Source: Verrucomicrobiota bacterium (lineage in GTDB: Bacteria; Verrucomicrobiota; Verrucomicrobiia; Opitutales; Opitutaceae). From it: a stretch of 57,292 nucleotides of DNA. The notes below the pieces were generated by a model. The model was not told where the DNA came from and did no database searches. It saw nothing but the letters and a program-made list of their open reading frames with translations. Shown in pieces: positions 2,025 through 43,381 of the stretch (positions are counted from its first letter, which is position 1; every line of letters starts with the position of its first letter). A program made the position numbers and the translations under genes. The DNA lies in contig JAEZSJ010000363.1 of assembly GCA_023443985.1 (NCBI GenBank), forward strand, positions 1-57,292. Direction: 5' to 3'.

Positions 2025-3457
2025 AGGCCCCCGCCACCACGCCCGCCTCCGGCCTCTCGCAGGCCCACCAACACGCGCTTGCCGCCGCCTTCGACCGGGA
2101 GGACGCCCGCCCCACCGCCGCCGCCCGATCCTACCGCCGCCTGCTCGCCCGGTACTACAATCTACTCATCCCCGCCGATGCCTCGGTGCTGGAGATCGGC
2201 TGCGGCGACGGCGAACTGCTCGCGCAGCTCAAGGCCGCCCGCAGGACCGGGGTTGATCTCTCCGCCAAGCAGCTGGAGCGGGCACGGTCGCGGATCCCCG
2301 ACGCGACCTTCATCGAGCAGGCCGGCGAGGAACTGGAGCTGCCGGGCCAGTCCTTCGACTACATCGTCGTCTCCGACACGCTCAACTTCGCGGCGGATGT
2401 GCAACAACTGCTGGCGCGGGCGCGCGCCGTCGCCATGCCGCGGACGCGGCTGCTGATCAACTCCCACAACAACCTGTGGCGGCCGCTCTTCGCCTTGGCT
2501 TCGGCGCTGGGACTTCGCTCCCGGCAGCCGCAGAGCTCCTGGCTCTCGCGCCACGACGTGGCCAACCTGCTCGAGCTCTCCGGGTGGGAAGTAATCAAAT
2601 ATCAACCACGACTGCTCTGGCCCGTCCGGACCCCGTTGCTCGCGCCGCTGTTCAATCGCTGGCTGGCTCCCCTCCTCCCGTGGGCCTGCTGCGCGGTCTT
2701 CACCATCGCCCGCCCGAAGCCCGTCGCGGTCGAGCATCCGCTGAGCGTGTCCGTCCTCATCCCGGCCCGCAATGAGGCCGGCAACATCGAGGCCGCCATC
2801 CAGCGCACGCCGCAGATGGGCTCGTGGACCGAGTTGATCTTCGTCGAGGGCAACTCCACCGACCACACCTGGGCCGAGATCCAGCGCGTGAAGGCCGCCT
2901 ATCCCGACCGCCGGATCAAGATCCTCCAGCAGCCCGGCAAGGGCAAAGGCGATGCCGTGCGCGCCGGCTACGCCGTGGCCGAGGGCGACGTGCTCATGAT
3001 CCTCGATGCCGACCTCACGATGCCGCCCGAGGAGTTGCCGAAGTTCTACCACGCGATCGCCTCCGGCCGCGCGGAGTTCGCGAACGGGTCGCGCCTCGTC
3101 TACCCCATGGAGAAGGAGGCGATGCAGTTCCTCAACATGGTCGCCAACCACTGCTTCGGCCACCTCTTCTCCTGGATGCTCGGGCAGCGCGTGAAGGACA
3201 CCCTCTGCGGCACCAAGGTCCTGCGGCGCGACCACTACCTGCAGATCGCGGCGAACCGCGCCTATTTCGGCGACTTCGATCCGTTCGGCGACTTCGACCA
3301 GCTCTTCGGCGCCGACAAGCTCAACCTCAAGATCGTCGACATTCCGATCCGCTACCGCGATCGCACGTACGGCTCGACCAACATCAGCCGCTGGCGCCAC
3401 GGCGTCCTTCTCCTGCGCATGGTGCTCTTCGCCGCCCGCAAGCTCCGCTTCGTGTAG
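2021..3457 (+). CDS. Fusion protein: class I SAM methyltransferase domain, hydrophobic segment, GT2 glycosyltransferase domain
   Basis: ATG 2021 is in frame with track ORF 1421..3457; the upstream part of that ORF is Arg/Pro-rich and overlaps the previous gene. N-terminal VLEIGCGDGELL (MT motif I); hydrophobic LLAPLFNRWLAPLLPWACCAVFTIA; C-terminal VLIPARNE, ILDADLTMPPEEL, LCGTK (GT2). Confidence 0.85.
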   Translation: MKAPATTPASGLSQAHQHALAAAFDREDARPTAAARSYRRLLARYYNLLIPADASVLEIGCGDGELLAQLKAARRTGVDLSAKQLERARSRIPDATFIEQAGEELELPGQSFDYIVVSDTLNFAADVQQLLARARAVAMPRTRLLINSHNNLWRPLFALASALGLRSRQPQSSWLSRHDVANLLELSGWEVIKYQPRLLWPVRTPLLAPLFNRWLAPLLPWACCAVFTIARPKPVAVEHPLSVSVLIPARNEAGNIEAAIQRTPQMGSWTELIFVEGNSTDHTWAEIQRVKAAYPDRRIKILQQPGKGKGDAVRAGYAVAEGDVLMILDADLTMPPEELPKFYHAIASGRAEFANGSRLVYPMEKEAMQFLNMVANHCFGHLFSWMLGQRVKDTLCGTKVLRRDHYLQIAANRAYFGDFDPFGDFDQLFGADKLNLKIVDIPIRYRDRTYGSTNISRWRHGVLLLRMVLFAARKLRFV

Positions 3458-3692
3458 GGTGCGCCCGCGCGGCCCTCCCCGGGCGCGCCGATCGCGACCG
3501 CGAAGACCTGCCCTGTCGCGTGGTTCTGGTGACCGGCCGCCCCCTGGCGGGTTTTGTGAAACCGAGCGCTTGCCACGTATTCGTCGCACCCTCAGCGTCG
3601 CACCGCATGGGTTTGGTGGCAGACCAGAACAACCGCATCTCGCGAGCGCATCCGGCACGGGTGCTTCGCGGCTCCGCAGCCCGACACCTTCG

Positions 3693-5042
3693 ATGAGAAC
3701 ACTCGTGATCATCGACGACGAGCCCGTCATCCGCGAGATGCTCGTGCGCCATCTCGAGGGCCAAGGGTGGAAGGTGCTGCAGGCCGACAGCGGCACCGAG
3801 GGTCTGGAGCTCATCGCCACCCACCGGCCCGCCGCGGTGCTCTGCGACCTGCTCATGCCGGGCACGACCGGTTTCAGCGTCTGCCGGTCCATCCGCGCGC
3901 GGCGCGACCAGCTCGGCGATGTCACGATCATCGTGACGACCGGCAGCAGCTTCCCCGCGGACCGGCAAAGCGCGCTCGAGGCCGGTGCGGACCACTTTCT
4001 GGTCAAGCCCGTCAGCCCCGCGCAGATCGCCCAGATTCTCTCCGCGCTGCCTGGTCCGCCGGAGGCGGACCCGCTCGCCGAACCGCTCCCGGCAGCCGAG
4101 GCGGCCACGGTGCGCTTCTGGGGCGTGCGCGGCTCCATCGCAACCCCCGGCGCCGAGACCGTCAGGTACGGCGGCAACACCACCTGTGTGGAGCTCCGGG
4201 TGGGCGAGGAGCTCATCATCCTCGACGCGGGCACAGGCATCCGCCCGCTCGGCGAGCGGCTGCGGCGGGAGTCCGGCGGACGGCCGGTCAGAGCCGAGAT
4301 CCTGCTCACCCACACGCACTGGGACCACATCCAGGGGCTCCCGTTTTTCGGACCGATCCACGATCGCGGCAGCATGATCTCCGTGCTGGGGTACGAAGGC
4401 GCGAAACAGAGCCTGCTCAAGACGCTGGCCGCGCAGATGGACAGCACCGTCTTCCCCATCGGCATGGATCAACTCGCCGGGAATGTGACGGTGCGCGAGC
4501 TGCACGAGCTCGAGTTTCGCGCCGGGCGCGTGCCGGTCCAGGCGGCGTTCATGAACCATCCCGGTGTCACGCTCGGCTACCGGCTGGGCACCCCCGGGGG
4601 CAGCGTCGTGTTCATGCCGGACACCGAGATCATGCCGTTTGCCCGTGAGCGTCCGGCGCGGCGCGAGCCGGAGCCGGATGCGGACACCGCGCGCTTCAAC
4701 GCCTACAAGAACCAGCTCCTCGCGGAATTCGCCGCGGGTGCGGAGCTTCTCATCTGCGATGCCCAATACACGGCCGAAGAGTACGAACGCCGCGTGGGCT
4801 GGGGGCACAGCTGCGTCGACGACACCGTCCGGCTCGCCCTCCAGGCTAAGGTGAAACGCCTCGTGCTCTTCCACCACGATCCCACCCACGACGACGACGC
4901 GATCGATGCGTTGGTCGCCCGGGCACGGGGTCTGGCGGCGGTCGAGGGCTCCGCCCTGCAGATCGATGCCGCCGCGGAGGGCATGGAGATCGAGCTCCGG
5001 CGCAAGCCCCGTCCCAGTCCTTCGGCTGCATCAACGATCTGA
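3693..5042 (+). CDS. Response regulator: receiver domain fused to an MBL-fold metallo-hydrolase domain
   Basis: ATG 3693 gives MRTLVIIDDEP. REC signature: DDE, phospho-acceptor in VLCDLLMPG, VTTG, LVKP. The C-terminal domain carries LTHTHWDHIQG (HxHxDH) and later FHHDP. Confidence 0.85.
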   Translation: MRTLVIIDDEPVIREMLVRHLEGQGWKVLQADSGTEGLELIATHRPAAVLCDLLMPGTTGFSVCRSIRARRDQLGDVTIIVTTGSSFPADRQSALEAGADHFLVKPVSPAQIAQILSALPGPPEADPLAEPLPAAEAATVRFWGVRGSIATPGAETVRYGGNTTCVELRVGEELIILDAGTGIRPLGERLRRESGGRPVRAEILLTHTHWDHIQGLPFFGPIHDRGSMISVLGYEGAKQSLLKTLAAQMDSTVFPIGMDQLAGNVTVRELHELEFRAGRVPVQAAFMNHPGVTLGYRLGTPGGSVVFMPDTEIMPFARERPARREPEPDADTARFNAYKNQLLAEFAAGAELLICDAQYTAEEYERRVGWGHSCVDDTVRLALQAKVKRLVLFHHDPTHDDDAIDALVARARGLAAVEGSALQIDAAAEGMEIELRRKPRPSPSAASTI

Positions 5043-6126: not shown

Positions 6127-7314
6127 ATGATCATCCGTCCGAAGACTCGCGGTTTCGTCTGCATCACGGCCCACCCGCAGGGGTGCGCCGCACATGTGCA
6201 GGAACAGATCGACACGGTCGTGCGGCGCGGGCCGATCACTGGTGGGCCCAAGAAGGTCCTGGTGATCGGTGCGTCCACCGGCTACGGGCTCGCTTCGCGC
6301 ATCGCCGCGGCCTTCGGTTCGGGCGCCGCCACGTTCGGCGTGTTCTTCGACCGCCCATCAGAAGAGGACCGCACCGCCACGGCGGGCTGGTACAACACCG
6401 CAGCATTCCACGCCGCCGCGCACCAGGCCGGCCTCTATGCCAAGAGCCTCAACGGCGACGCGTTTTCCGACGAGATCAAGCGCCAGACGATCGAAGCGCT
6501 GAAACGGGACCTCGGTCCGGTCGACCTCATCGTCTACTCCCTCGCCTCCCCCCGCCGCACCCACCCACGCACGGGCGTCGTGCACAAGTCCGTCCTCAAA
6601 CCGATCGGCGCGCCCTACACCAACAAGACGGTCGACACCGAGTCCGGCGAGGTCTCCGAGATCACGATCGAGTCCGCCACCGAAGCCGAGGTCACCGACA
6701 CCGTCGCCGTGATGGGCGGCGAGGATTGGGAACTGTGGATCAACGCCCTCGACGAGGCCAGGCTCATCGCCCCGGGCGCCACGACGATCGCGTATTCGTA
6801 CATCGGGCCCGAGGTCACCTGGGCCGTCTACAAGAACGGCACCATCGGCATGGCCAAGAACGACCTCGATGCCACCGCCAAACGGCTCAACGCCACCATG
6901 CGGGTGAACGGCTACGGTCGCGCCTTCGTCTCGGTCAACAAGGCGCTCGTGACCCAGGCCAGCTCCGCCATCCCCGTCGTGCCCCTCTACATCTCCGTCC
7001 TCTACAAGATCATGAAGGAGCGGGGGCTGCACGAGGGCTGCATCGAGCAGATCGACCGCCTCTACCGCACCCAGATGTACGGCGGCAACGCCCTCAACTT
7101 CGACGACGCCGGCCGAGTCCGCATCGACGATTGGGAGATGCGCGCCGACGTGCAATCCGAGGTCGCCCGCCTCTGGCCGCAGGTGAACACCGACAACCTC
7201 GCCGCGCTCACCGACATTGCCGGCTACCGCGCCGATTTCCTGAAACTCTTCGGCTTCGGTCTACCGGGCCTCGACTACGAGGCGGACACCGACCCCCACC
7301 TCGAGATGCCGTGA
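6127..7314 (+). CDS. fabV: Trans-2-enoyl-CoA/ACP reductase, FabV type
   Basis: MIIRPKTRGFVCITAHPQGC...VLVIGASTGYGLASRIAAAFG...YSLASP is a characteristic FabV/TER N-terminus. 395 aa. Confidence 0.9.
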   Translation: MIIRPKTRGFVCITAHPQGCAAHVQEQIDTVVRRGPITGGPKKVLVIGASTGYGLASRIAAAFGSGAATFGVFFDRPSEEDRTATAGWYNTAAFHAAAHQAGLYAKSLNGDAFSDEIKRQTIEALKRDLGPVDLIVYSLASPRRTHPRTGVVHKSVLKPIGAPYTNKTVDTESGEVSEITIESATEAEVTDTVAVMGGEDWELWINALDEARLIAPGATTIAYSYIGPEVTWAVYKNGTIGMAKNDLDATAKRLNATMRVNGYGRAFVSVNKALVTQASSAIPVVPLYISVLYKIMKERGLHEGCIEQIDRLYRTQMYGGNALNFDDAGRVRIDDWEMRADVQSEVARLWPQVNTDNLAALTDIAGYRADFLKLFGFGLPGLDYEADTDPHLEMP

Positions 7315-7475
7315 TGGCCGGGAGGTTCCGCACCGGCACGGTGGGCTGCGGAAACACCGCCGCTACAGCACGGGCCGCCGAGGGCACCAGCACCCGGGCA
7401 CAACCTCGGCTTTGGTCGAGGTCCAGCCTTTCCCATTGCCAGCCCACACGACGCCATTTTCGCTGACCGGTCTTC

Positions 7476-8672
7476 ATGGCGATCTCCTTTTTTTCCCGCG
7501 CCCGCAACGCCATCGCCGCCCGCTGCGCAAATGACCAGGCGACGAAGGCGCGACTACGGTTCGCGCCCTACTACCACGCCATGGAAGCGCAGCAGGGGAC
7601 GCGCATCCGCTTGGACGGGCGGGACCTGGTCATGCTCGCCAGCAACGACTACCTCGGTCTCTCCTTCCATCCCAAGGTGCTCGAGGCCGGCCAGCGCGCC
7701 ATGACCCAGTGGGGAGCGAGCACCACTGGCGCCCGTGTCTCCAACGGCTCCCGCACCTTCCATCACGCGCTGGAGGAGAAGCTCGCCGCGTTCCTTGGCA
7801 AGGAAGCCTGCCATGTCCATGCGGCGGGTTACCTCTCCTGCATGTCGGGCATCGCGTCGTTCGCCGCCAAGGGCGATGTCGTCCTGGCCGACAAGAACAT
7901 CCACTCCTGCCTCTGGGACGGCATCCGCCTCTCCAACGCCACCGTCGAACGCTTCGCCCACAACAACCCAGACGACCTGCGGGACGTGGCGAAGACGATC
8001 CCGGCCGACACCGCCCGGCTGATGATCCTCGAAGGCGTCTACTCGATGGAGGGCCACATCGCCCGCCTTCCGGAACTGATCGCCGTCGCCGAGGAGCATG
8101 AGTGCTTCAACGTGCTCGACGATGCCCACGGCTTCGGCGTGCTCGGCCGCGACGGGCGCGGCACCGCCGACCACTTCGGCCTCACCGACAAGATCGACGT
8201 GATCGTCGGCAGCCTCTCGAAGTCGCTCGGCAGCACCGGTGGGTTCGTCGCCGGCAAGCGCGAGTACATCGAGTACCTGCGTACCCACTCCAAGCACACG
8301 ATCTTCAGCGCCGCGCTCAGCCCCGCCCAGGCCGCCGCCGCGGAGGCCGCGCTCACGGTGCTGCAGACGGAACCGCAGCATCGCGAACGCCTCTGGGCCA
8401 ACACGCGCCGCTACGTCGCGTTCCTCAAATCGCTCGGGCTGGACACCTGGGGCAGCGAGACGCCAGCGGTCCCGGTCGTCGTCGGCTCGAAGGAGCGTGC
8501 CTATCGGTTCTGGCAGCTGCTCCGCGAGAAGGGGGTCTTCACGGTCATGTCCATCGCGCCCGCGGTCCCGCCCGGCAAGGATCTGATCCGCACCGCGATC
8601 TCCGCCCTGCACTCCGACGAGGATCTCGCCCGCATCGAGGAAGCGTTCACCTACGCCGCGAAACGGCTCTGA
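7476..8672 (+). CDS. PLP-dependent alpha-oxoamine synthase, serine-palmitoyltransferase-like
   Basis: 398 aa. Motifs SNDYLGL, LEGVYSMEG, DDAHGFG, GSLSKSLGSTGGFV (PLP lysine) and RERLWAN. From memory these resemble Spt more than BioF/Kbl. Confidence 0.85.
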   Translation: MAISFFSRARNAIAARCANDQATKARLRFAPYYHAMEAQQGTRIRLDGRDLVMLASNDYLGLSFHPKVLEAGQRAMTQWGASTTGARVSNGSRTFHHALEEKLAAFLGKEACHVHAAGYLSCMSGIASFAAKGDVVLADKNIHSCLWDGIRLSNATVERFAHNNPDDLRDVAKTIPADTARLMILEGVYSMEGHIARLPELIAVAEEHECFNVLDDAHGFGVLGRDGRGTADHFGLTDKIDVIVGSLSKSLGSTGGFVAGKREYIEYLRTHSKHTIFSAALSPAQAAAAEAALTVLQTEPQHRERLWANTRRYVAFLKSLGLDTWGSETPAVPVVVGSKERAYRFWQLLREKGVFTVMSIAPAVPPGKDLIRTAISALHSDEDLARIEEAFTYAAKRL

Positions 8673-8736
8673 CCGCCCCTGCCGCGGTGACGGGCTGACA
8701 GGCGCCGCCGCCGAAGCCAGGCGGCGCGAAACCCGG

Positions 8737-9795
8737 TTACGCCAGCGCGGCCGACACTGCGGCGGCGGAGTCCTGCCAGGTCGGCAACGCGCGGTTCAAC
8801 GCCCCGCGGCCCAGTTCCTCCACCAACCGCGCATCGGTGAGCACGCGGCGCAGCCCGGAAACCCAGGCCGCGAGATCGTCGCCCGGGAGCGTCAGGCAAC
8901 CACCGCCGGTCGCATGTTCGAGCAGAGCGGGGATGTCGCTGCACACGCAGGGCAGGCCGGACCACAGCGCCTCGATCACGGGCAGTCCGTTGCCCTCGGC
9001 GCGCGACGGAAACACACCGGCGATGCAGCGCGCCGCCAGCGCATTCACCGCCTCGTCCGGCAGCGGCCCGTGGTAGTGGAACTGTGTGCGACGGAGCGCC
9101 AGCGCGCGCGCGCGCCGCTCCACGGATTTGCCGAAATGCGGGTTCACCCGCCCGACCAGGTGCACCTCGAACTCCAGCCCCTCCGCCCAGAGCGCCTCGG
9201 CGGCGTCGAGCAGCAAGGCCTGGTTCTTCCGCGGCTCCAGGATCCCGACCATCAACAGCGCCGGCGTACCGCCGGGGCGTTCCCGGTTGCGCGCCCTCGG
9301 GCGCCCCGAGCCATCGGCGCCGAGCGGAAACGCCGTCACCTTGGCCCGCGCCGGCATGCGGCCCCACGCCCAGTACTGCTCCAGCTCCGCGCGACTCGTC
9401 TCCGAGATGGCCAGCACCCGTTCGAAGCCCGCAAGCAGCTTCATGTATCCGGGATGCCGCGCGACGCTGTGCGGCCAAGTCGTCTGCGGAAAACGCAACG
9501 GGATCGCGTCGTAATAGACGGCCGCGGTCCGGCAGCCGGGCTGCGCAACCCACGCCGAAAACCCGGGTCGCTCGTCCTCGCTGAACAGCTCGGGCGTGAA
9601 GACCCAATCGTCCTTCGCCGGGGTGACCCGCGAGCCGTCGGCCAGGGTCCACCCGCCCGCCGGCGGGTCCCAGCGGACCGCCTCGAGCGCCTGCGGCGCC
9701 CTCCCGGCCATCTCCGCGCGCAACCGCCCGCTCACGCGCTGGATCCCGGAGTGGTGGCCCGAACGGGCGGCCTTGGTGGTGTCGAAATAGATCAT
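8737..9795 (-). CDS. Glycosyltransferase family 4 (GT-B)
   Basis: ATG at 9795 (MIYFDTTKAARSGHHSGIQRV). C-terminal FPSRAEGNGLPVIEALWSG is the GT4 EX7E-type motif. The ATG overlaps the upstream gene's stop (ATGA, 9792-9795). Confidence 0.8.
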   Translation of the reverse strand: MIYFDTTKAARSGHHSGIQRVSGRLRAEMAGRAPQALEAVRWDPPAGGWTLADGSRVTPAKDDWVFTPELFSEDERPGFSAWVAQPGCRTAAVYYDAIPLRFPQTTWPHSVARHPGYMKLLAGFERVLAISETSRAELEQYWAWGRMPARAKVTAFPLGADGSGRPRARNRERPGGTPALLMVGILEPRKNQALLLDAAEALWAEGLEFEVHLVGRVNPHFGKSVERRARALALRRTQFHYHGPLPDEAVNALAARCIAGVFPSRAEGNGLPVIEALWSGLPCVCSDIPALLEHATGGGCLTLPGDDLAAWVSGLRRVLTDARLVEELGRGALNRALPTWQDSAAAVSAALA

Positions 9796-11030
9796 TCTTC
9801 CTCCCGGATGCGCGCCAACAGCCGCGCGGCGTTGCGGTGCACGTCGAAATTCTCGCGCACCCACTCCCGCGCCGCGGAGCGCAGGCGCTCGCAGAGCGCG
9901 TCGTCGCCCGCCAGGCGGCGCCAGGCGCCGACCCAGGCCGAGGCGTCCTCGATCGGCGCGACGAGCCCGGTATGCTCGTGTTGCACCGCCTCGGTCGTGG
10001 CCGCGACGGGCGAACTGACCACCACCGCACCCGCCGCCATCGCCTCCGGGATGACATTCGGCAGCCCGTCGCGATCCCCGCTGCGTGCGATCACGCCCGT
10101 GTGCACAAGCACGTCGGCCCACGCCAGTGCCGCGAAGATCTCCGGCTGGGGCCGGTGTCCCATGAGCTCCACCACCCCGCCGAGCTGCAGCGCACGGATC
10201 TGCGCCTCGAGCCGCGCGCGGAGCGGACCGCTGCCGAAGATGCGGACTTGGAGCGCCAGACCCGCGTCGCGGGCCGCGGCATGGAGTTCGAGCTGCCGCT
10301 CGAGCCCCTTCTTCTCCACCAGCCGCGCGACGCACACGATCCGCAGCGTCGTCCGCTGCGAGCGCAGCGGCTTGAAGGGAGGCAGCACCTCCAGCCCGCG
10401 GCGCACGACCAGGATCTTCCCCGGCGGCGTGCCGCGCTCGCGCAGCGTCGCGGCGCCCATCTGCGTCGAGGTGCGAACGAAGCGCGCCAGCGCGATCTTC
10501 TCGCGCAGGAGCCAGTCGCCACCGTGCTCGTAGAGATCATACGCGTGCGCCGCCATGCTGAACGGGATCCCGGTGAGCCGCCACACCGCCCAGGCCGCAC
10601 CCGCCGGCGCGGAGGCCCACACGGCGTGCAGGTGCCGCGGCTGTTCCCGCCGGTGTCGCGCCGCCTCCACCACCCCGTAGCCGGCGCCCAGGAGGTTCTC
10701 CCAGAAGTTCCACCACCCGGGCGGCGGCCGCAGCACCATCGTCCGCATCAGGTCGGCGAAGAAGCCGCCCCGCGTGCGCCACGTCTCCAGCGGCAGCCGC
10801 CAGAGCACGGTGAACAGGCGCCACCGGTTGAACTGGTCGACGGGAAGCCCGGCGAACTCGGCCGCGCCCCCCCAGAGCGACACCAGCCGCAGTCGCACGC
10901 CCGCCGCCCGCAACGCCACGACCTCGCGCTGGAGGAACGTCTCGGTCGGGTGCGGAAAGCGCGTGAACAGCAGGACGATCTCCGCGCCTGCACCTTCCTC
11001 GGTTGCTCGTGTTGATGCCGGCGCCGCCAT
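9792..11030 (-). CDS. Glycosyltransferase family 4 (WcaL-like)
   Basis: 412 aa. VLLFTRFPHPTETFLQREV at the N-terminus and DGLPNVIPEAMAAGAVVV near the C-terminus. Starts 6 nt after the upstream gene. Confidence 0.8.
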   Translation of the reverse strand: MAAPASTRATEEGAGAEIVLLFTRFPHPTETFLQREVVALRAAGVRLRLVSLWGGAAEFAGLPVDQFNRWRLFTVLWRLPLETWRTRGGFFADLMRTMVLRPPPGWWNFWENLLGAGYGVVEAARHRREQPRHLHAVWASAPAGAAWAVWRLTGIPFSMAAHAYDLYEHGGDWLLREKIALARFVRTSTQMGAATLRERGTPPGKILVVRRGLEVLPPFKPLRSQRTTLRIVCVARLVEKKGLERQLELHAAARDAGLALQVRIFGSGPLRARLEAQIRALQLGGVVELMGHRPQPEIFAALAWADVLVHTGVIARSGDRDGLPNVIPEAMAAGAVVVSSPVAATTEAVQHEHTGLVAPIEDASAWVGAWRRLAGDDALCERLRSAAREWVRENFDVHRNAARLLARIREEE

Positions 11031-11036
11031 CGCAGG

Positions 11037-12224
11037 TCACACCGGGAACGGCCGCGGCAGCTGTGCCGCGTCGAAGCCCAGCCCGATCAGCTCGTGGATG
11101 AGGACGGTGGGATCCTCCTCATAGCGCAGCGCCTCGAAACGCTGGTGCGCCTCGTCGTAGCAGCCCGGCACCCGAATCCAATTTTCCATCACTGTCCGGA
11201 GACCGGCGGCCGAGTCGATGATCGGGCACGCCGCGCCGCGCTCGAAGAACTTCACCGTGAGGCTCTCCTGCGGCATGATGCTCCCGTAGGCGTTGAAGAT
11301 GATCGGGCAGCGGAAGTTCAGCGCCTTGGCGCAGGTCGTCGTGCCGCCGCGGGTCACGATCGCGTCGCTCACCTGCAGGAGCCGGTGCATCTCGTCGGTG
11401 TAGCCGTCGATGAAGCAGGCGAACTCGGGGTGCTGGGCGCGCCAGTGGATCGCATCGGCGTAGGTGCGGGCGTTGCGCCCGGAGACGACGATGGCCTGCA
11501 CGCGGTCGGCAAACTCCGCCAGGACCGGCAGCAGCTCCATGTGCTGGTTTGCGCCGTTGCCGCCGGTGCCGAGGAGCACCGTGAAGCGGTCGGGGCGCAG
11601 ACCGAGCTTGTCCACGAGAAAGCGTCGCCGCTTCTCCGGGGTGAGGATGTCGTGGTGCGAGCGGGGCCGCATCAGGTGGCCGCGGACCTTCGTCTGCTCG
11701 GGCCGCAACCCCAGCTTCACGGCATAGTCGCGCGCGGTCGGCGTGCGGGAGAAATAGAGGTCCACGCTCCGGTCGATCCAGTTGCGGCTGTAGCCGTAGC
11801 CGCCCGAGAATTCCCCACAGTAGGTCGCGCACCGGACGTTCGCCGCACCGAGCACCTGCCGGGCGACCTCGAAATAGCCGCGGTTGAGGCAGTCATGCAC
11901 GCTGAAGATCAGATGGGGGCGGTACTCGCGCAGGAGCGCGCGATAGTACTTCTTGCCGAAGCTGATGCTGTCCCGGTTGATGATGCTCAAGCCCTCCACG
12001 AGCATGTAGTAGGGATGGTGCAACCACGGAGCTTTCCGCTGGACCCAGTTGTAGAAGCTCACGCCCCACCGGCCGATCACCGAGGACTTCTCCAGCAGTT
12101 GCTCGATCCGGACATCGACCCGGTGTTTGTAGAGCTCGAAGGCCCATTCGGCAAAGGCCTGCGCGCGGGCGTCGTGGCCGCCGCCGGTGCTGGAGGTAAG
12201 GACGAGGATGCGAACTTGGCTCAC
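11037..12224 (-). CDS. GT28-type monoglycosyl-diacylglycerol synthase-like glycosyltransferase
   Basis: GTG start at 12224. ILVLTSSTGGGHDARAQA is an MGDG-synthase/UgtP-like N-terminal signature; C-terminal ...VTRGGTTTCAKAL. Starts 3 nt after the SDR stop. Confidence 0.75.
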   Translation of the reverse strand: MSQVRILVLTSSTGGGHDARAQAFAEWAFELYKHRVDVRIEQLLEKSSVIGRWGVSFYNWVQRKAPWLHHPYYMLVEGLSIINRDSISFGKKYYRALLREYRPHLIFSVHDCLNRGYFEVARQVLGAANVRCATYCGEFSGGYGYSRNWIDRSVDLYFSRTPTARDYAVKLGLRPEQTKVRGHLMRPRSHHDILTPEKRRRFLVDKLGLRPDRFTVLLGTGGNGANQHMELLPVLAEFADRVQAIVVSGRNARTYADAIHWRAQHPEFACFIDGYTDEMHRLLQVSDAIVTRGGTTTCAKALNFRCPIIFNAYGSIMPQESLTVKFFERGAACPIIDSAAGLRTVMENWIRVPGCYDEAHQRFEALRYEEDPTVLIHELIGLGFDAAQLPRPFPV

Positions 12225-12227
12225 GGG

Positions 12228-13055
12228 TCAGGGAAGTCCGAAATAGCGGGCGAGCACCGCCCGGCGCAGCGACAGGGGGGCGAGGCGCGCGCCAAGCGGC
12301 GCGACGACCGTCTGGAAGAAGGAACCGGAACGCACGATGCCCGACCGGCCGCGGCGCAGAGCCCGACGCAGATCCTGCGCGGCCCGCCGCGGCAGCGGCG
12401 CCGCGGCGAAGGTGGCCTCGAGCCGGCGCGCGACCCGCTGCGTGCGTTCCGGCACGTTCTGGTGGGGGGTGGCGAACATCGTGTTGTTGAACTCCGTCCG
12501 GTAATCTCCAGGACGAAAGTCGATCACCGTGATTCCGGCCTCCTTCCCTTCCAACATCAAACTTTCGGAGAGCGCGGCGAGTCCCGCCTTCGCGACGTTG
12601 TAGCCGGAGAGCAGCGGAATCGGAAACTCCACCGCCATCGAGGTCACGTTGACAATCGCCCCGGCGCGGCGTCCGGCCATCGCCGCGAACGCGCCACGGT
12701 TGAGCGCCAGCGACACGCCGAGCATCTCGTCGACCTGCGCGCGCCAAGTCGAAAGTGGTTGGTCGAGAATGCCGCCAAAGATCCCGTAGCCGGCGTTGTG
12801 CACGAGCAGGCCAAGTCCGCCGCTCTCACGCTCGACTTGGGCGAACAACCCGTCCGCCGCGCCCTCGCCATCGGCGAGGTCCAGGCGCAGGCCGTGGAAA
12901 CGCGCCTGCGCAGGTAGCCGCTCCGGGCGCCGCGACGTGCCCCAGACCTCGACCCCTTCCGCCAACAACATCTCGGCGAAGGCGCGGCCCAGCCCGGTGC
13001 CCGCACCGGTCACCAGGGCCGTGCGATAGCGGGAGGCGAGCGGGGTCGATGGCAT
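12228..13055 (-). CDS. Short-chain dehydrogenase/reductase (SDR)
   Basis: ATG at 13055. ALVTGAGTGLGRA (TGxxxGxG), NAG, and YNVAKAG (YxxxK). 275 aa. Confidence 0.85.
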   Translation of the reverse strand: MPSTPLASRYRTALVTGAGTGLGRAFAEMLLAEGVEVWGTSRRPERLPAQARFHGLRLDLADGEGAADGLFAQVERESGGLGLLVHNAGYGIFGGILDQPLSTWRAQVDEMLGVSLALNRGAFAAMAGRRAGAIVNVTSMAVEFPIPLLSGYNVAKAGLAALSESLMLEGKEAGITVIDFRPGDYRTEFNNTMFATPHQNVPERTQRVARRLEATFAAAPLPRRAAQDLRRALRRGRSGIVRSGSFFQTVVAPLGARLAPLSLRRAVLARYFGLP

Positions 13056-13080
13056 GTGGCGCGCTGGAACCGCCGGACTA

Positions 13081-14346
13081 TCAGGCGGCCGGGGCGCGCA
13101 GCACAAGCGAGACGTTGGCACCGCCAAAACCGCTCGCGTTGTTCAGGACGACCTGCGGACGCACGGCGAGGGTCTGGCGCGGCAGATTGAGGTCGGCAAA
13201 CTTCGGATCCACCTCCCGCAGGCCGCCGCAACCGGGAACAAAACCGCCGCGGATCGCCAACGAGCAGATCCCCGTCTCGAATACCGTCGCCATCGAGAGG
13301 CCGTGTCCGGTGAGCGCCTTGGTGCTGCTCACCGGCACCCGGGCCGCCTCCGCGCCGAAGACGCTGCGGATCGCCTTCACCTCGGAGGCGTCGCCGATCG
13401 GGGTCGAGGTGGCGTGGGCGTTGATGTAGTCGATCTGTCCGGACGCGACATTCGCCGCCTTGAGGGCCCGCCGCATCGCTTCCGCCAGCCCGAGCCCCTC
13501 CGGATGCGAGATGGCGACATTGTGGCCGTCGGAGGCCTGTCCCCAGCCGGCGAGCTCGGCGTACGGCGAGACGCCCCGCCGCGCCACCTCGTCCTCGCTC
13601 TCGAGCACGACGACCGCCGCGCCTCCTGTGCCCACAAAACCATCACGGGCGACATCGAAGGGCCGCGAGGCGGAGGCCGGGTCGGCCGAGGTGGAGAGCG
13701 CCCGCATCGCGGCGAACGGCAGGATCGCGTCCATGTTCCCGTCCTCCGCGCCGACGACAATCATGCGCTCCTGCCTCCCCGTGACGATGTCGTCGAAGGC
13801 GAAGCCGAGCGCATGCCCCGTCGAGGCGCAGGCGGAGGAGAAACCGCAGGAATGACCGCGGATCTTGAAGGCCGCGACCAGGTTGAAGTTCAACGTGCCG
13901 GAGATCGACGCCACCACCGCGACCGGCGAGCACCGCATCACGCCGACCTGGTGCATGCGGCCCAGGTAGTGGGCGAGGATCATCGGAGAGCCGGCCGAGG
14001 CGCAGTACAGGCCGGTGTTCTCGTTCTGCAGGTCGGCCTCCGCGAGGGATGCGTCCGCGATCGCCTGCTGCATCGCACAGTGCGCATACAGGCCGTGGGG
14101 AGCCATGCTCCGGAGCAGTTCGCGGCGCACCGCGTACCGGGCGGGATAGGTCCAGTCCTCCGGCTCGATCGACGAGACGTCGAAGTCCTTCACCGTCCCC
14201 ATCACCTTCACCGGCACCTCGGGGCGCTGAAATGGTGGATACAGTTCGAAGCCGTGGCGCAGGGCGCGCACGCTGGCTTCGACGGTTTCCTTGTCGTTGC
14301 CGATGCTGCTGATGAATCCGAGGCCGGTGACGAATACTTTCCGCAT
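13081..14346 (-). CDS. Beta-ketoacyl-ACP synthase (KAS I/II family)
   Basis: ATG at 14346 (MRKVFVTGLGFISSIG). Active-site context GFSSACASTGHA; then INAHATSTP and TKALTGHGL (Cys-His-His triad). Confidence 0.9.
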   Translation of the reverse strand: MRKVFVTGLGFISSIGNDKETVEASVRALRHGFELYPPFQRPEVPVKVMGTVKDFDVSSIEPEDWTYPARYAVRRELLRSMAPHGLYAHCAMQQAIADASLAEADLQNENTGLYCASAGSPMILAHYLGRMHQVGVMRCSPVAVVASISGTLNFNLVAAFKIRGHSCGFSSACASTGHALGFAFDDIVTGRQERMIVVGAEDGNMDAILPFAAMRALSTSADPASASRPFDVARDGFVGTGGAAVVVLESEDEVARRGVSPYAELAGWGQASDGHNVAISHPEGLGLAEAMRRALKAANVASGQIDYINAHATSTPIGDASEVKAIRSVFGAEAARVPVSSTKALTGHGLSMATVFETGICSLAIRGGFVPGCGGLREVDPKFADLNLPRQTLAVRPQVVLNNASGFGGANVSLVLRAPAA

Positions 14347-14455
14347 GATTGGAGAGACCGCCGCCGGCTCGAGCTGTGCCATCCCCGGCGAACAGAAGGT
14401 CCGAGGCTCGGGACCTTCCGCCCGCTGGCAACAGGATTATCCGTACCGCGACGGC

Positions 14456-15370
14456 TCAGGCGCTCGTCGCGGCGGCCGGGGCGGCCGCCGCCGTTTCGGC
14501 GACCGGCGCCTGGTAGGCGAAGGTGAGCGTGATCTCCTCGGCGAACGCCGCCTTCTCGCCACCCACCTTGACCGTGCCCTCGAAGGTGGCCAGCGGCGCC
14601 TTGATCCGTTTCGGCCGGACCGACAGGACGATCGTCTCGCCGGGCTTCACCATCCGCTGGCAGCGTACGCCTTCGCAGCTCGTGAAGAAGACCGCGGAGG
14701 AGTCGACCGCACTCTCGAGCTCGGGCGCGCCGCTTTGTAGCAGAAAAAGGACTGCGAGCTGGCCCAGGGCCTCAAGCATGATCGAGGCGGGCAGCACCGG
14801 ATTGTCACGGAAATGTCCCTGCAGGAAGAATTCGGTGCCGGCCAGCTGGTAGCGGCCGGTGGCGGAGTTGGCCGCGATCGTGGCCTCCTGCACGAACAGG
14901 AAGGGCGGCTGCATGGGCATCACCTCAAGCACCGCCTCGATCGGCAGATGCTTGGCGGGCACCGGCACCTTGCCGCTCACCTTCGCCTCGATGAAGGCGT
15001 TGATGTCGGCGATCGTCCGGAGATCGCGCAGCTCCTCGTTCTTGATCGGCACCTTGATGCACTCCTCGACGAGCATCACCACCTCGAGCATCGTCAGGGA
15101 GTCGACCCCGAGATCCTCCACCACGCGCAGGTCGGTCGCGCCGGTGTGCAGCCGCGGGCGCTGCTCCGGATCGACGAACCGCTCGATGATCCCCAGCACC
15201 ACGGTGGGGACCGCGGCGACATCGCCCGTGCGCCGGTAGCGCAGGGCCGCTTCGAGGGTCGCCGGCGAGCAACGTTTCAGTGCTTCACGCAATGCGCCCT
15301 CGTCGGCGGCGCTCAAGCCAGCCGCGGTCGCCACGGGACGGGAATTTTCCTGTTCGGACATGAACGGCAT
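14456..15370 (-). CDS. Acyl carrier protein fused to a FabZ/FabA-like hotdog dehydratase
   Basis: ATG at 15370 (alternative 15361). ACP motif DLGVDSLTMLEVVMLVEE. The C-terminal half has FLQGHFRDNPVLPASIMLEALGQLA, a hotdog dehydratase motif. Confidence 0.8.
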   Translation of the reverse strand: MPFMSEQENSRPVATAAGLSAADEGALREALKRCSPATLEAALRYRRTGDVAAVPTVVLGIIERFVDPEQRPRLHTGATDLRVVEDLGVDSLTMLEVVMLVEECIKVPIKNEELRDLRTIADINAFIEAKVSGKVPVPAKHLPIEAVLEVMPMQPPFLFVQEATIAANSATGRYQLAGTEFFLQGHFRDNPVLPASIMLEALGQLAVLFLLQSGAPELESAVDSSAVFFTSCEGVRCQRMVKPGETIVLSVRPKRIKAPLATFEGTVKVGGEKAAFAEEITLTFAYQAPVAETAAAAPAAATSA

Positions 15371-15521
15371 GTAACAAATTCGGCAAGTACCCGGGCAAAT
15401 CCTATTTTCCTCGGACCCGCCGGTCTCCCCGTCGTTCCGCCGCCCGGCGGGGGTCCTCCCAAAAAAGCACTTGCCATGCCCGGGCCCGCCGGATGCTCTC
15501 GGCCCCTTAATCACTTTCACC

Positions 15522-15752
15522 ATGGCTCGAATCTGCGCGATCACAGGCAAGCGTCCCTCCAAAGGGAGCATCATCCACCGTAAGGGTCAGTCCAAGAAGA
15601 GCGGCGGCATCGGCACGCACGTGACCGCCAAGACCACTCGCTGGATCAAGCCGAACCTGCAAAAGGTCAAAGTCCGCCTGCCCAACGGCGGCACGAAACG
15701 CATTTTGGTCGCCGTGAAGGCAATTAAGGCTGGAAAAATCCAGAAGGCCTGA
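15522..15752 (+). CDS. rpmB: 50S ribosomal protein L28
   Basis: MARICAITGKRPSKG...HRKGQSKKSGGIG...RWIKPNLQKV, 76 aa. Confidence 0.95.
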   Translation: MARICAITGKRPSKGSIIHRKGQSKKSGGIGTHVTAKTTRWIKPNLQKVKVRLPNGGTKRILVAVKAIKAGKIQKA

Positions 15753-18746: not shown

Positions 18747-19778
18747 ATGCCGCTGATTCCCCGGCTCGCCGAAAAGCTCCAGCGCCATCCGAAACGCTTC
18801 GTGTTTCCGGAGGGGGCCGACCCGCGCGTGTTGCAGGCGGCCCGGCAGATCGTCACCCGCCGGATGGGCGCCCCCATCCTGCTCGGGGAACGCTCGGTCA
18901 TCAAGGATGCGGCCCTCCGGCTCGACATCTCGCTGCAGGGCATCCGCCTGATCGATCCCGCGCGCGCGGCCGACCTCGAGGAGTTTGCGACGCGCTACCT
19001 CGAATTGCGTCGCGGCCGCGGGTTGCAGCCGCCCGAAGCCCGCGCGGCGATGGTCGATCCCGCCTACTACGCCACCATGATGCTCGCCACGGCGCAGGCC
19101 GATGCACTCATCGGCGGCGCCACCGTCTCGGCCTCCAGCGCGTTGCGTCCGTTGTTTCAGATCATCCCCAAGCAGGAGGGGGTGAACACCGCCTCCTCCG
19201 TGATGGTGCTCGATTTCGACGAGAACAAGGTCGGTCTCGACGGCTCCCTCTTCCTCGGCGACTGCGGCGTCATCCCCGATCCCACCGCCGAGCAGCTGGC
19301 CGACATCGGCATCACCGCCGCACGGATCGCCCATCACCTCACGAACGACACCCCGCGCGTCGCCTTCCTCAGCTACTCGAGCCGCGGCACCTCGTCGCAT
19401 CCCTCGGTGTTGAAGATGCGCGCCGCCACCGAGCTCGCGCGGGCCAAGATCCCCGAGCAGAAGTTCGCCGTGGAGATCGACGGCGAGATGCAGGTCGATG
19501 CCGCGCTCGACCCGCGCACCGCCGCGGCGAAGGGCGTGCTGCCGGGTGTCGGCGGCCGGGCGAACGTGCTGATCTTCCCCGATCTGAACTCCGGCAACAT
19601 CGCCTTCAAACTCGTGCAGGTCCTCGCCGGGGCGAACACGTTCGGCCAGATCATCACCGGCCTCTCGCGCCCCGCCGCCGAGATCAGCCGCGGCTCCAGC
19701 GCCCACGATGTGCTCGGCGCCGCCGCCATCGTGGGCGTGCAGGCGATCAGCCACAATCTCCTCTACGGCGCCGACTGA
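18747..19778 (+). CDS. pta: Phosphate acetyltransferase, catalytic PTA_PTB domain only
   Basis: 343 aa. FVFPEGADPRVLQAA, GDCGVIPDPTAEQLADI, ANVLIFPDLNSGNIAFKLVQ and ISRGSS motifs. Confidence 0.9.
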   Translation: MPLIPRLAEKLQRHPKRFVFPEGADPRVLQAARQIVTRRMGAPILLGERSVIKDAALRLDISLQGIRLIDPARAADLEEFATRYLELRRGRGLQPPEARAAMVDPAYYATMMLATAQADALIGGATVSASSALRPLFQIIPKQEGVNTASSVMVLDFDENKVGLDGSLFLGDCGVIPDPTAEQLADIGITAARIAHHLTNDTPRVAFLSYSSRGTSSHPSVLKMRAATELARAKIPEQKFAVEIDGEMQVDAALDPRTAAAKGVLPGVGGRANVLIFPDLNSGNIAFKLVQVLAGANTFGQIITGLSRPAAEISRGSSAHDVLGAAAIVGVQAISHNLLYGAD

Positions 19779-19809
19779 ACGCCCGCGGCCCGCCCCCGCA
19801 CCCCCTTCC

Positions 19810-20976
19810 ATGCCGACTTCAGCCATGCCCGACGGTTATCAGGAGGCACCCGCCGGCCTTCTCGCCAAGCCGACCAACACCACCACGAAGCGCATCTTCG
19901 TCGCCGGCACCCGGATGAACGAGGGCAAGACCACCACCTGCCTCGGTCTCTTCGCCGCGCTCCAAACGCTCTACCCCCGCGTGGGCTTCATCAAACCGGT
20001 CGGCCAACGCTTCGTCGAAGTCGAAGGCCACCAGATCGACGAGGACTCCGTGCTGCTCGACACGATCTACCACGTGAAGGTCCCGATCGAGAGCATGAGC
20101 CCCGTCACCGTCGACGGGAAGTTCACCCGCCGCTACCTCACCGATCCCGCGGGCACGCTCCCTGTATTGATCGATCGGATCTGCCGCGCCTTCGACCGCG
20201 TCTCGTGGGAGAAGGATTTCACTCTCATCGAGGGCACCGGCCATGCCGGCGTCGGCTCCGTCTTCGACCTCTCCAACGCCTCCGTCGCCCGGCTGCTCGA
20301 CGCAAAGGTCATCCTCGTCTCCTCCGGCGGCATCGGTCGCCCCGTCGACGAGATCGCGATGAACAAGGCCCTCTTCGACCGCGAAGGCGTCGAGGTGATC
20401 GGGGCCATCGTCAACAAGGTCGAGCCGGACAAGCTCGGCTTCATCGCCGACTACGCCGGCCGCGGCCTCGCCCGCCACGGGGTACCCTTGCTCGGGGTGC
20501 TGCCCATCCAGAAGCCGCTCACCTCGCCCAACCTCGCGCAGATCGTCGAGGAGATCGGCGGCCGCTGGCTCAACGGGCGCGCCACCGGCGCGAACGAGCG
20601 TATCGATGAAGTCGTGATCGGGGCCATGACTGCCAAGGGCGTGATCGACACCCTCAAGCCGGGCGTCCTGCTCGTCACTCCGGGCGACCGCGACGACCTG
20701 CTGTTCGCGACCATCTCCACGGCCGGCTTGTCCGGCCGCAAGGTCGTGTCCGGCATCGTGCTCACGGGCAACACGCTCCCCCACCCGCGCCTGCTCGAGC
20801 TGCTCTCACAAACCCCGATCCCCGTCGTTGCCGTCGCCGACGAGTCCTACGCGGTGGCGTCGAAGATCAACAACATGACGATCAAGACGCAGCCGCAGGA
20901 CGCGGACAAGATCCCTATCATCAAGCGCATGGTCCTCGACCATGTGGACCTGAAGAAGCTGCTCGCGTCCTTCTAG
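19810..20976 (+). CDS. BioD-like P-loop + DRTGG domain protein (equivalent to the N-terminal half of long Pta)
   Basis: IFVAGTRMNEGKTTTCLGL (P-loop), IEGTGHAGVGSV, and LLVTPGDRDDLL (DRTGG-type). Start at 19810 or 19825. Confidence 0.75.
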   Translation: MPTSAMPDGYQEAPAGLLAKPTNTTTKRIFVAGTRMNEGKTTTCLGLFAALQTLYPRVGFIKPVGQRFVEVEGHQIDEDSVLLDTIYHVKVPIESMSPVTVDGKFTRRYLTDPAGTLPVLIDRICRAFDRVSWEKDFTLIEGTGHAGVGSVFDLSNASVARLLDAKVILVSSGGIGRPVDEIAMNKALFDREGVEVIGAIVNKVEPDKLGFIADYAGRGLARHGVPLLGVLPIQKPLTSPNLAQIVEEIGGRWLNGRATGANERIDEVVIGAMTAKGVIDTLKPGVLLVTPGDRDDLLFATISTAGLSGRKVVSGIVLTGNTLPHPRLLELLSQTPIPVVAVADESYAVASKINNMTIKTQPQDADKIPIIKRMVLDHVDLKKLLASF

Positions 20977-32528: not shown

Positions 32529-32564
32529 AGTATTGCGATAGCTTGTGGTTGCGTTGTTGGGGAA

Positions 32565-32587
32565 CCGGCGGGTTTGGGATCCGCCGG
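32565..32587 (-). promoter_or_regulatory. Conserved 5'-leader stem-loop, 36 nt upstream of the receptor start codon
   Basis: CCGGCGG-N9-CCGCCGG. The homologous hairpin at 36734-36754 carries one compensatory G:C to A:T change. Confidence 0.45.
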
Positions 32588-32936
32588 TCTCGCCGCGCCG
32601 GGCCGCCGCGGATGCGGCCGCCCAACCGGCAAAGGGTCTGGGAAAAGAACTGCCTGCAGGCGCAGGCTTCGGGAACCGTGACGCGGGGTTGCTTGGGGAA
32701 ACCGCGGCGTCAGTGATGGCGCTTGACTGCTTGGGGAAGCCGGAGCGTCACGGTGGTGTGCATGGCGGGAAAACGGGAGCGCAGGAGGGATTGCGTAGCC
32801 GATCGGAGATGGGGGATTTCCCGGGAATCACTGTCCCCCACCCGGCTGGAGACAATCGGTGGCCGGTACTAACTATCGAGCATCGCGGAGGCGCTTTTCC
32901 CGCCCGCCGCACGGGCCGAGGCCCCGGAGACTGGAG

Positions 32937-36707: not shown

Positions 36708-36733
36708 TAGCTTGTGTTGTTGCGTTGGGGAAA

Positions 36734-36754
36734 CGACGGGCTTGGGGACCGTCG
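36734..36754 (-). promoter_or_regulatory. Conserved 5'-leader stem-loop, 26 nt upstream of the receptor start codon
   Basis: CGACGG-N9-CCGTCG, with loop GCTTGGGGA versus GTTTGGGAT in the paralogous leader. Confidence 0.45.
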
Positions 36755-38072: not shown

Positions 38073-38093
38073 AGCGCCCGCTGCGTCGCGCCG

Positions 38094-39838: not shown

Positions 39839-39949
39839 CGAACCCCGACTAATTCAGACCGGCGCCGGGGAATCCACGCCAAAGTCGGCGCGAACCGTTC
39901 CGGGTCGGGCCGCGGCGCCGGCCGCTTCGACCCGCGAGCCCCGCGCCGG

Positions 39950-43344: not shown

Positions 43345-43381
43345 GGAGAAAGAAGCAGGCGTCGACGTGTCTTGGCGTTGG

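Follow-up and report, generated by a model that had tools for sequence, protein, structure and literature searches.

Introduction

Sphingolipids were long considered rare in bacteria, and the pathway that runs through serine palmitoyltransferase (Spt), bCerS and CerR has been defined only recently, in Caulobacter and Bacteroidota. The Caulobacter sphingolipid locus includes an acyl carrier protein (ACP), an acyl-ACP synthetase and the Sgt glycosyltransferases. In rhizobia, the acpXL-fabZXL-fabF2XL-fabF1XL cluster builds the very-long-chain fatty acid of lipid A. In this work we analyzed a 57-kb contig (JAEZSJ010000363.1, 57,292 nucleotides, hereafter the window; GC ∼0.68) from a metagenome-assembled genome (MAG) of the family Opitutaceae (Verrucomicrobiota). 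It carries a gene for an Spt-like alpha-oxoamine synthase (AOS) that converges on genes for a fusion of ACP and dehydratase (ACP-DH), a beta-ketoacyl-ACP synthase (KAS), a short-chain dehydrogenase/reductase (SDR) and three glycosyltransferases (GTs). We tentatively favor the reading that this locus is an Opitutaceae pathway for a glycosylated sphingoid-type (long-chain amino-alcohol) envelope lipid.

The ceramide pathway of Caulobacter consists of Spt, bCerS and a periplasmic, NDUFA9-like CerR (PMC11087976, PMC11324152), and the Caulobacter Spt may use acyl-ACP (PMC11087976). The bCerS and CerR genes of Bacteroidota are also found unlinked to Spt (PMC11334938). Spt-like genes are already known from Verrucomicrobiota: metagenome phylogenies hint at such enzymes in many phyla, this one included, without pathway context, and in a study of the Black Sea, 22 Verrucomicrobiota MAGs were predicted, from phylogeny only, to encode Spt-like proteins (PMC11334938). 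Our search of the literature on sphingolipids or polar lipids of Opitutaceae and Verrucomicrobia surfaced only this metagenome study, and we found no paper on Opitutaceae sphingolipids or on the present locus. The locus gives a pathway context across a family of abundant soil, freshwater and gut-associated Verrucomicrobia. Its features are an Spt-like enzyme locked to GTs, a carrier that is apparently loaded by condensation, and the fact that the known ceramide genes went unrecognized nearby. If our reading is true, it would add a new route of acyl supply to Spt and a new class of envelope glycolipids, with possible immunological relevance and use as a marker for environmental lipidomics. Cultured carriers of the locus (Lacunisphaera, Opitutus, and Rariglobus) make it directly testable.

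The locus resembles that of Caulobacter in grouping the gene for an Spt-type enzyme with genes for GT4 glycosyltransferases, a reductase-type protein and an acyl carrier of its own, and the product is presumably bound for the outer membrane. Unlike in Caulobacter, no bCerS-like acyltransferase, NDUFA9-like CerR or acyl-ACP synthetase was recognized in the Opitutaceae locus, as far as domain annotation goes; for bCerS and the synthetase this agrees with an initial annotation of the window made from its sequence alone. Further differences from Caulobacter are that carrier and dehydratase form one fusion protein, proposed to be loaded via KAS I-type condensation, not ligation, that the reductase candidate is a classical cytoplasmic SDR, and that the locus additionally has a putative GT28 lipid glycosyltransferase, joined in relatives by a GT-C protein.

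Two other systems are similar in part. With the rhizobial acpXL cluster the locus shares a private ACP, a FabZ-like dehydratase and a KAS I/II grouped together, the other steps of fatty acid synthesis being borrowed. Unlike that cluster, it has the ACP and the dehydratase in one polypeptide, a single KAS and no LpxXL-type acyltransferase, and the apparent consumer of the acyl chain is AOS together with GTs, not lipid A. Aryl-polyene sets (ApeI, ApeK, ketosynthase, ketoreductase, and ACP), which we regard as a minor parallel, likewise combine ketosynthase, ketoreductase, dehydratase and ACP without an enoyl reductase, and relatives of the window carry a 4HBT thioesterase. Unlike those sets, the Opitutaceae locus is without a chain-length factor, second ketosynthase, aryl-starter ligase, ammonia lyase or LolA/MMPL genes, and its KAS is FabB/FabF-like, not polyketide-type.

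Results and Discussion

The AOS Is Spt-Like in Sequence

The AOS gene (7476–8672, + strand) encodes a pyridoxal 5′-phosphate (PLP) enzyme with the Pfam domain Aminotran_1_2. From motifs in the protein, the initial annotation had judged it to be nearer to Spt than to BioF or Kbl. All of these motifs are present (ILEGVYSMEG, LDDAHGFG, GSLSKSLGSTGGFV, and HRERLWAN), and the ranking of profile models, the ranking of solved structures, the active-site residues and bootstrap analysis all pointed the same way. AOS has the PLP lysine and the His/Asp/His set of a fold-type I alpha-oxoamine synthase: its Lys249, the Schiff-base lysine, aligns with Lys244 of the Sphingobacterium SPT (SmSPT), and its His143, Asp215, and His218 align with the PLP-binding residues His138, Asp210, and His213 of SmSPT. 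The fold-type I architecture is that of SmSPT (PDB 3a2b/8guh) and the S. wittichii SPT (SwSPT, 2x8u), and the residues in contact with PLP and substrate are conserved. Among the residues that contact PLP or L-serine in the SmSPT crystal structure (PMC10196870), AOS keeps Asn52, Tyr54, Gly80, Arg82, Asn85, His138, Ser185, Asp210, His213, Ser243, Lys244, Phe272, Ser273, and Ala274 (SmSPT numbering). The only three changes in this shell are Ser81 to Ala, Thr241 to Ser, and Met271 to Ile; the contacts of Ser81 and Met271 are in part main-chain or water-mediated (PMC10196870). The kept contact residues alone do not settle the serine specificity of AOS. More Spt-typical strings are SKS around the lysine and PAVP...LIR, which AOS has in common with bacterial SPTs along with LEGVYSM(E/M)G and TTGxRVxNG; SwSPT shares TTGxRVxNG and LEGVYSM with it.

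Scores against the NCBIfam models placed SPT-CFB at the top (372.7 bits), yet under its cut-off of 640. It was followed by TIGR01825, a BioF/Kbl-related model (348 bits, cut-off 535), SPT-Beta (340.9, cut-off 500), BioF TIGR00858 (337.9, cut-off 426.45), two Kbl models (312.8 and 266, cut-offs 460 and 493) and SPT-Alpha (277.9, cut-off 670). For the 10 nearest representatives of AOS, SPT-CFB was the best model in every case (369–585 bits), with 0/10 above the cut-off. The best match in the PDB was SmSPT (3a2b, 306 bits), ahead of a Thermus BioF/Kbl (258 bits), Sphingomonas SPTs (∼246 bits), Kbl (≤237 bits), cysteate acyltransferase (211 bits) and BioF (≤188 bits). Pairwise identity was not discriminating, being 38.1% to SmSPT, 38.6% to the Thermus BioF/Kbl, 35% to SwSPT and 30% each to E. 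coli BioF and E. coli Kbl.

In a neighbor-joining (NJ) analysis of 78 sequences with 300 bootstraps, SmSPT and SwSPT being the only two verified SPTs, 75% of replicates separated the window AOS, SmSPT and SwSPT from E. coli Kbl, the Thermus BioF/Kbl and E. coli BioF. AOS joined Kbl/Thermus in about 6% of replicates and BioF in 5%, it was apart from Kbl and Thermus in 95%, and its position relative to the two verified SPTs was not settled by this tree. AOS is 66–94% identical across Opitutaceae; in an exhaustive search of 50%-identity representatives, the next full-length representatives outside this clade were 53% and then 45% identical, and the remainder ≤43%. By these identities the Opitutaceae AOS form an isolated clade. 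The contexts of the nearest representatives from outside the family were uninformative, one (P0241) lying on a 2.7-kb contig and another (P0246) alone among heme and cell-wall genes. With 35–38% identity to bacterial SPTs, scores under all NCBIfam Spt cut-offs and a clade of its own, AOS is best described as an Spt-like enzyme of a distinct subfamily and a candidate Spt.

Conserved Gene Order in Opitutaceae

Gene order was compared in two synteny surveys. An ACP-DH profile was run against one genome per species, and the best 80 of 549 relatives were taken, their loci coming from Opitutaceae, Opitutales or Verrucomicrobiota MAGs labeled at phylum or class level. An AOS profile was run against JGI metagenome contigs and gave another 80 loci, for 160 loci in both surveys. 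Proteins of the window and clustered neighbor families were mapped on the loci by tblastn, and the denominators below are the loci with enough flank.

The most constant partners of AOS are GTs. A GT4 gene, GT4c, lies directly upstream on the same strand in 53/59 AOS-anchored loci, and a gene for a polytopic, GT-C-like membrane protein lies further upstream in 31/54. From downstream, GT4a (8737–9795, − strand, in the window) converges on AOS in 43 of 55 AOS-anchored loci, and GT4b (9792–11030, −) is near AOS in 40 of 50; GT28 (19/38), KAS (18/37) and ACP-DH (16/27, within 10 kb) are near it in part of these loci. Seen from ACP-DH, the downstream genes are KAS (70/76 loci), SDR (61/71), GT28 after SDR (62/68), GT4b (41/59) and GT4a (38/54), and AOS converges within 10 kb in 28 of 45 ACP-DH-anchored loci. 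Because the gene order of the locus repeats in dozens of Opitutaceae genomes, at 45–94% protein identity, it goes beyond chance. Synteny across the family thus agrees with the initial annotation in tying AOS to GTs and, often, to the ACP-DH/KAS module.

The minus-strand genes had been taken for a single six-gene operon, and the surveys did not uphold this. They form two conserved modules, ACP-DH/KAS I/SDR/GT28 (module 1) and GT4b/GT4a (module 2), often split at a GT28/GT4b break point that recurs between genomes. The expected co-conservation of the two converging units stood in part: modules 1 and 2 adjoin in about 50–60% of genomes and are separated in the rest, and fabV, upstream of AOS in the window, is not conserved. 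In several genomes a leuC-leuD-LysR trio sits exactly between GT28 and GT4b (L022, 13759–16954; L055, 14803–18065; L080, 15467–18507; also L039 and L051).

At the level of the family the order is thioesterase-GT4d, then ACP-DH-KAS-SDR-GT28, then GT4b-GT4a converging on AOS-GT4c-GT-C. In most Opitutaceae, AOS ends a unit of the GT-C-like protein, GT4c and AOS, and a GT4 gene (44 loci) and a 4HBT thioesterase gene (37 loci) are divergent from ACP-DH in most genomes. The window has no homolog of the thioesterase, of the divergent GT4 (GT4d) or of the GT-C-like protein, and GT4c finds in it only GT4a, at 34% identity. The GT-C-like protein has ∼500 aa and about five to seven predicted transmembrane segments, and matches PMT_2 with 30.9 bits in L003. 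Its gene (PMT_2 or Alg9-like) lies at 7241–8752 in L003 and 19291–20799 in L031, and is present in 2–3 copies in L109, L156, and L165.

The subclade of the window (L005, L008, L010, and L014–L016) has a reduced locus with fabV in the place of GT4c. In Rariglobus hedericola (L002, 11197–15638), AOS converges on ACP-DH, KAS, GT4b and a GT2 gene. SDR and GT28 are missing from this variant, which lies among sugar epimerases and GT2/GT4 genes. L003 and L004 have AOS without module 1 nearby. Five close relatives (L006, L007, L009, L012, and L013) keep murJ-rpmB-ACP-DH, with the stretch from KAS to fabV absent at this site, a further point in which the six-gene block did not behave as one unit. The lone ACP-DH fusion perhaps functions by itself there; alternatively, its partners could have relocated. 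The fusion gene is found at about 10001–10900 in L006, L007, L009, and L013, and at 707–1561 in L012; in L009 it is followed by genes for an aldose 1-epimerase, an SSF transporter, rpsB and tsf. Other recurrent neighbors were dismissed as housekeeping after annotation: shikimate kinase, QueG, FKBP and LOG-like genes, a beta-eliminating lyase, purD, oligopeptide ABC transport and leuCD-LysR.

The enoyl-ACP reductase gene fabV (6127–7314, +) had been counted as a member of the system, and we rejected this. The protein has all three Pfam domains (Eno-Rase_NADH_b, Enoyl_reductase, and Eno-Rase_FAD_bd) and scores 634.1 bits against the NCBIfam FabV equivalog NF043048, whose cut-off is 400. The gene is beside AOS in 2/42 ACP-DH-anchored loci (L005 and L014) and 0/58 AOS-anchored loci, and a GT4 gene takes its slot in most genomes. 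We placed fabV outside the conserved cluster because this adjacency is confined to the subclade of the window; the gene encodes a bona fide FabV and is most likely a housekeeping neighbor.

Enzymes of the Minus-Strand Modules

ACP-DH (14456–15370, −; Pfam PP-binding and FabA) consists of an N-terminal extension of ∼35 aa, an acyl carrier domain with Ser91, and a FabZ/ApeI-like hotdog dehydratase. Asp90-Ser91-Leu92 (the DSL phosphopantetheine site), His186, and Glu200 are invariant in an alignment of 12 homologs. Both parts match FabZ and ACP entries in NCBIfam and PDB, and the dehydratase part has a precomputed ApeI-like Pfam match. Ahead of the ACP domain, residues ∼20–55 contain a conserved LKRCSPATxEAAxxYRxTGD string with an invariant Cys and no Pfam match.

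KAS (13081–14382, −), an elongating enzyme with ketoacyl-synt N and C domains, has an intact Cys185/His/His triad. It missed the cut-offs of both NCBIfam FabF (309.6 bits, cut-off 493.75) and FabB (304.8 bits, cut-off 630), and scored 199 bits against the polyketide-type model PRK07103, compared with 305–310 for FabB/FabF. Its PDB matches were FabB-type enzymes (259–214 bits), then FabF (≤207 bits). These scores describe a divergent KAS I/II-like enzyme that appears closest to KAS I (FabB) and orthologous to neither.

The classical SDR oxidoreductase (12228–13055, −; adh_short) has the motifs TGAGTGLG and NAG and the residues S139/Y152/K156 intact, and no signal peptide. It meets no NCBIfam cut-off (KdsR, 83 bits against 400; FabG, 76 against 222). 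Both 3-ketoacyl-ACP reductase and 3-keto long-chain-base reductase are possible assignments.

GT28 (11037–12224, −; Glyco_tran_28_C) is the best-conserved GT of the locus (58–94% identity). It matches the UgtP model PRK13609 over its full length, and its only relatives of solved structure are 9wde, a processive diacylglycerol (DAG) beta-glucosyltransferase, and 4wyi, the plant MGD1 (45–54 bits); JGI annotates its orthologs as processive DAG beta-glucosyltransferase. Unlike Bacillus UgtP-type enzymes and MGD1 proper, it scores weakly (76.7 bits, cut-off 500). GT28 thus resembles lipid (diacylglycerol) glycosyltransferases, and DAG, a long-chain base, a ceramide-like lipid and other molecules are all conceivable acceptors. 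GT4b, with the Pfam domain Glycos_transf_1, is weakly EpsE/WcaL-like, both NCBIfam scores (117.8 and 103.6 bits) falling short of the cut-off. GT4a, the last gene of the minus-strand unit, has Glycos_transf_1 and Glyco_trans_1_4 domains.

Proposed Pathway and Alternative Explanations

What we observed directly is the gene content, the intact catalytic motifs, the Spt-like sequence of AOS, the linkage of AOS to GTs across the family, and its linkage with the ACP-DH/KAS module in about half of the genomes. From these we infer every substrate, the order of the steps, that the product is a lipid and where it is located. In the proposed pathway the KAS I-like synthase would extend an acyl primer by condensation with malonate bound to the carrier domain of ACP-DH. 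The SDR or a housekeeping FabG, together with the fused FabZ-like dehydratase, would process the beta-carbon, and an enoyl reductase of general metabolism (FabV here) might end the cycle. The net effect would be an acyl chain placed on a private carrier by at least one KAS-driven elongation. AOS would then join the acyl thioester, in a decarboxylative condensation, to serine or another small amino acid like it and so form a 3-keto long-chain base, whose ketone would be reduced by a reductase, possibly the SDR. Sugars would be added by the GT28 lipid glycosyltransferase and the GT4 enzymes and, in most relatives, by two more GT4 enzymes and the GT-C-like membrane protein.

We favor this order because the most constant partners of AOS are GTs, GT28 resembles enzymes that start glycolipids on a membrane lipid, no polysaccharide export machinery is conserved with the core, and module 1 parallels the acpXL cluster. 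No undecaprenyl phosphate-type initiating transferase, Wzx/Wzy or ABC exporter was present among the annotated recurrent neighbor families, so the lipid acceptor is probably a product of the locus itself. Apart from sphingolipid synthesis, we know of no pathway where an AOS supplies a glycoconjugate. A glycosylated sphingo- or amino-lipid, the product suggested by the initial annotation, is still the best inference available.

Several observations weigh against this reading. AOS falls far short of all three curated Spt cut-offs, is as identical to the Thermus BioF/Kbl as to SmSPT, and is weakly placed at depth, the deep nodes of the Spt-like bush having 3–10% NJ support. Modules 1 and 2 are apart in about 40–50% of genomes, the five relatives mentioned above have ACP-DH without the rest of the block there, and the SDR appears dispensable, being missing from the operon in several genomes. 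Nothing in the locus fixes the acyl chain length. No bCerS-like N-acyltransferase, CerR-like reductase or acyl-ACP synthetase was recognized by Pfam annotation in the locus or its conserved neighbors, so a true ceramide is unaccounted for, and the literature search gave no lipid data for Opitutaceae.

A more specific form of the sphingoid reading appears improbable to us. In it, KAS, ketoreductase and ACP-DH would halt at trans-2-enoyl-ACP, and AOS with serine would yield a delta-4 sphingosine-type base without desaturase or oxygen. In the same reading, that base would then become an oligoglycosyl, lipopolysaccharide (LPS)-like outer-membrane glycolipid without bCerS/CerR, built by up to six GTs including a periplasm-facing GT-C. 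An enoyl reductase is never conserved in the locus.

Among the competing explanations, the one that survives best is that two independent envelope-glycoconjugate systems lie side by side, which is possible if rather unlikely. Module 1, joined in relatives by the thioesterase and a GT4, would produce a special fatty acid and either a glycosyl-diacylglycerol or a glycolipid of hydroxy fatty acids, and GT-C/GT4c/AOS/GT4a/GT4b would separately make a glycosylated amino-lipid; together they might amount to a “non-phosphorus lipid island” comparable to the co-regulated glycoglycerolipid and glycosphingolipid routes of Caulobacter. Much of the gene order fits this. Many ACP-DH-anchored loci end at GT28 (L030, L062, L065, L070, L073, and L083); many AOS-anchored loci have GT4a/GT4b with no GT28, KAS or ACP-DH within 10 kb; AOS does without module 1 in L003 and L004; and leuCD-LysR separates GT28 from GT4b in several genomes. 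GT28 is similar to DAG glycosyltransferases, and the 4HBT thioesterase near module 1 suggests that the acid is set free instead of being passed on to AOS. Two independent systems would, however, not be expected to adjoin in the same convergent layout in roughly 50–60% of genomes, at 55–86% ACP-DH identity: this adjacency far outlasts what unrelated genes would show in a family with fluid neighborhoods. Module 1 also contains no obvious user of its private ACP.

It is unlikely that the locus decorates a polysaccharide or LPS-type glycan, with a short acyl group (such as 3-hydroxybutyryl or crotonyl) and an amino-ketone made by AOS placed on a sugar. O-antigens with ACP-dependent acyl decorations do exist. 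In L002 and L004, AOS ends polysaccharide-type clusters (GT2, epimerases, ABC-2 transporter, and Poly_export), and as many as six GTs and the GT-C-like protein go with AOS; the lack of anything that sets acyl chain length would also suit a short acyl group. Against such a role, the core genes have no initiating phosphoglycosyltransferase, flippase/polymerase or exporter as a conserved partner, the nearest characterized relatives of AOS are long-chain SPTs and not Kbl, the relatives of GT28 use lipid acceptors, and we know of no sugar substituent made by an AOS.

We consider it improbable that ACP-DH and KAS I are a FabA/FabB-like (or FabN/FabO-like) route to unsaturated or special fatty acids for general membrane lipids, with AOS an unrelated neighbor. 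Enterococcus pairs FabZ-like isomerases with FabB-like synthases, and here KAS is closest to FabB among solved structures, the dehydratase is FabZ-like with its catalytic residues intact, and in five relatives ACP-DH is retained while the other genes of the block are absent from the site. A housekeeping fatty-acid role would need no fused private ACP, though, nor would the lock to the SDR-GT28 pair in about 90% of loci be expected of it. KAS is missing where ACP-DH stands alone, so the two are not universally kept together.

That AOS is the BioF (or Kbl) of the organism, set beside lipid and sugar genes by coincidence, is very improbable and was largely rejected: automated pipelines label many orthologs “8-amino-7-oxononanoate synthase”, the BioF model scores only about 35 bits under SPT-CFB, and the 66–94% conservation is that of a housekeeping enzyme, but AOS is under the BioF and Kbl cut-offs, 30% identical to the E. 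coli enzymes, grouped with either in 5–6% of bootstraps and placed last in a GT-C/GT4 unit in 53/59 loci, and no BioA, BioB or Tdh homolog was found in the window or the other 167 loci by tblastn at E ≤ 1e-8 (bioD was not queried). A dedicated pimeloyl-ACP (biotin) route from KAS, SDR, dehydratase, FabV and AOS was considered because the window has all four fatty-acid-synthesis activities plus ACP and AOS; we rejected it because GTs are the most constant partners of AOS and fabV is not conserved.

Gene Calls, Intergenic Regions and Other Genes of the Window

Genes were called in two ways, by open reading frame (ORF) calling based on GC at third codon positions and by an independent public annotation of L001, a contig identical to the window, and the two agreed for the locus genes. 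The identical and near-identical matches of the window proteins come from Opitutaceae MAGs; the host is a freshwater/soil Verrucomicrobium of this family. All eight genes from fabV to ACP-DH were found where the initial annotation had put them, with the domains it had given (Pfam, NCBIfam, PDB, and both gene calls). Its spacing of the minus-strand genes held for three gaps (25, 3, and 6 nt) and for the ATGA overlap of GT4b and GT4a; the gap of 109 nt between ACP-DH and KAS is 73 nt with the KAS start at ATG 14382, as in the public call.

The two units converge, as had been described, across a 64-nt spacer between AOS and GT4a (8673–8736). The spacer contains an 8-bp GC stem (8702–8709/8720–8727) but its predicted folding was no more stable than that of shuffled controls (z −0.1 to −0.6). 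A bidirectional terminator there was unsupported, with no terminator-like site in the spacer. At the other end, the L001 gene calls place a divergent intergenic region (15371–15521) between ACP-DH (−) and rpmB (15522–15752, +). From its position this is the presumed promoter region of the minus-strand unit; no match to the sigma-70 consensus was found within it.

The remaining genes of the window are unrelated to the locus (pta, an acetolactate-synthase-like gene, TonB receptors, and xylan carbohydrate-active enzymes). Two ORFs of ∼1,300 aa each (28797–32747 and 33015–36788, both −) have a TonB-receptor Plug domain, a lower GC (∼0.64) and positive GC skew. Next to them, 36972–47607 encodes a LacI-type regulator, GH43, an SASA esterase and GH67, a xylan utilization locus resembling polysaccharide utilization loci. 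Phosphotransacetylase is encoded as two overlapping ORFs (18747–19778 and 19708–20976, both +) in an order swapped relative to E. coli Pta, the PTA_PTB catalytic domain coming first and AAA_26 (BioD-like) plus DRTGG second. Upstream of fabV, an ORF at 3195–5042 (+) fuses a response-regulator receiver domain to a metallo-beta-lactamase-fold domain.

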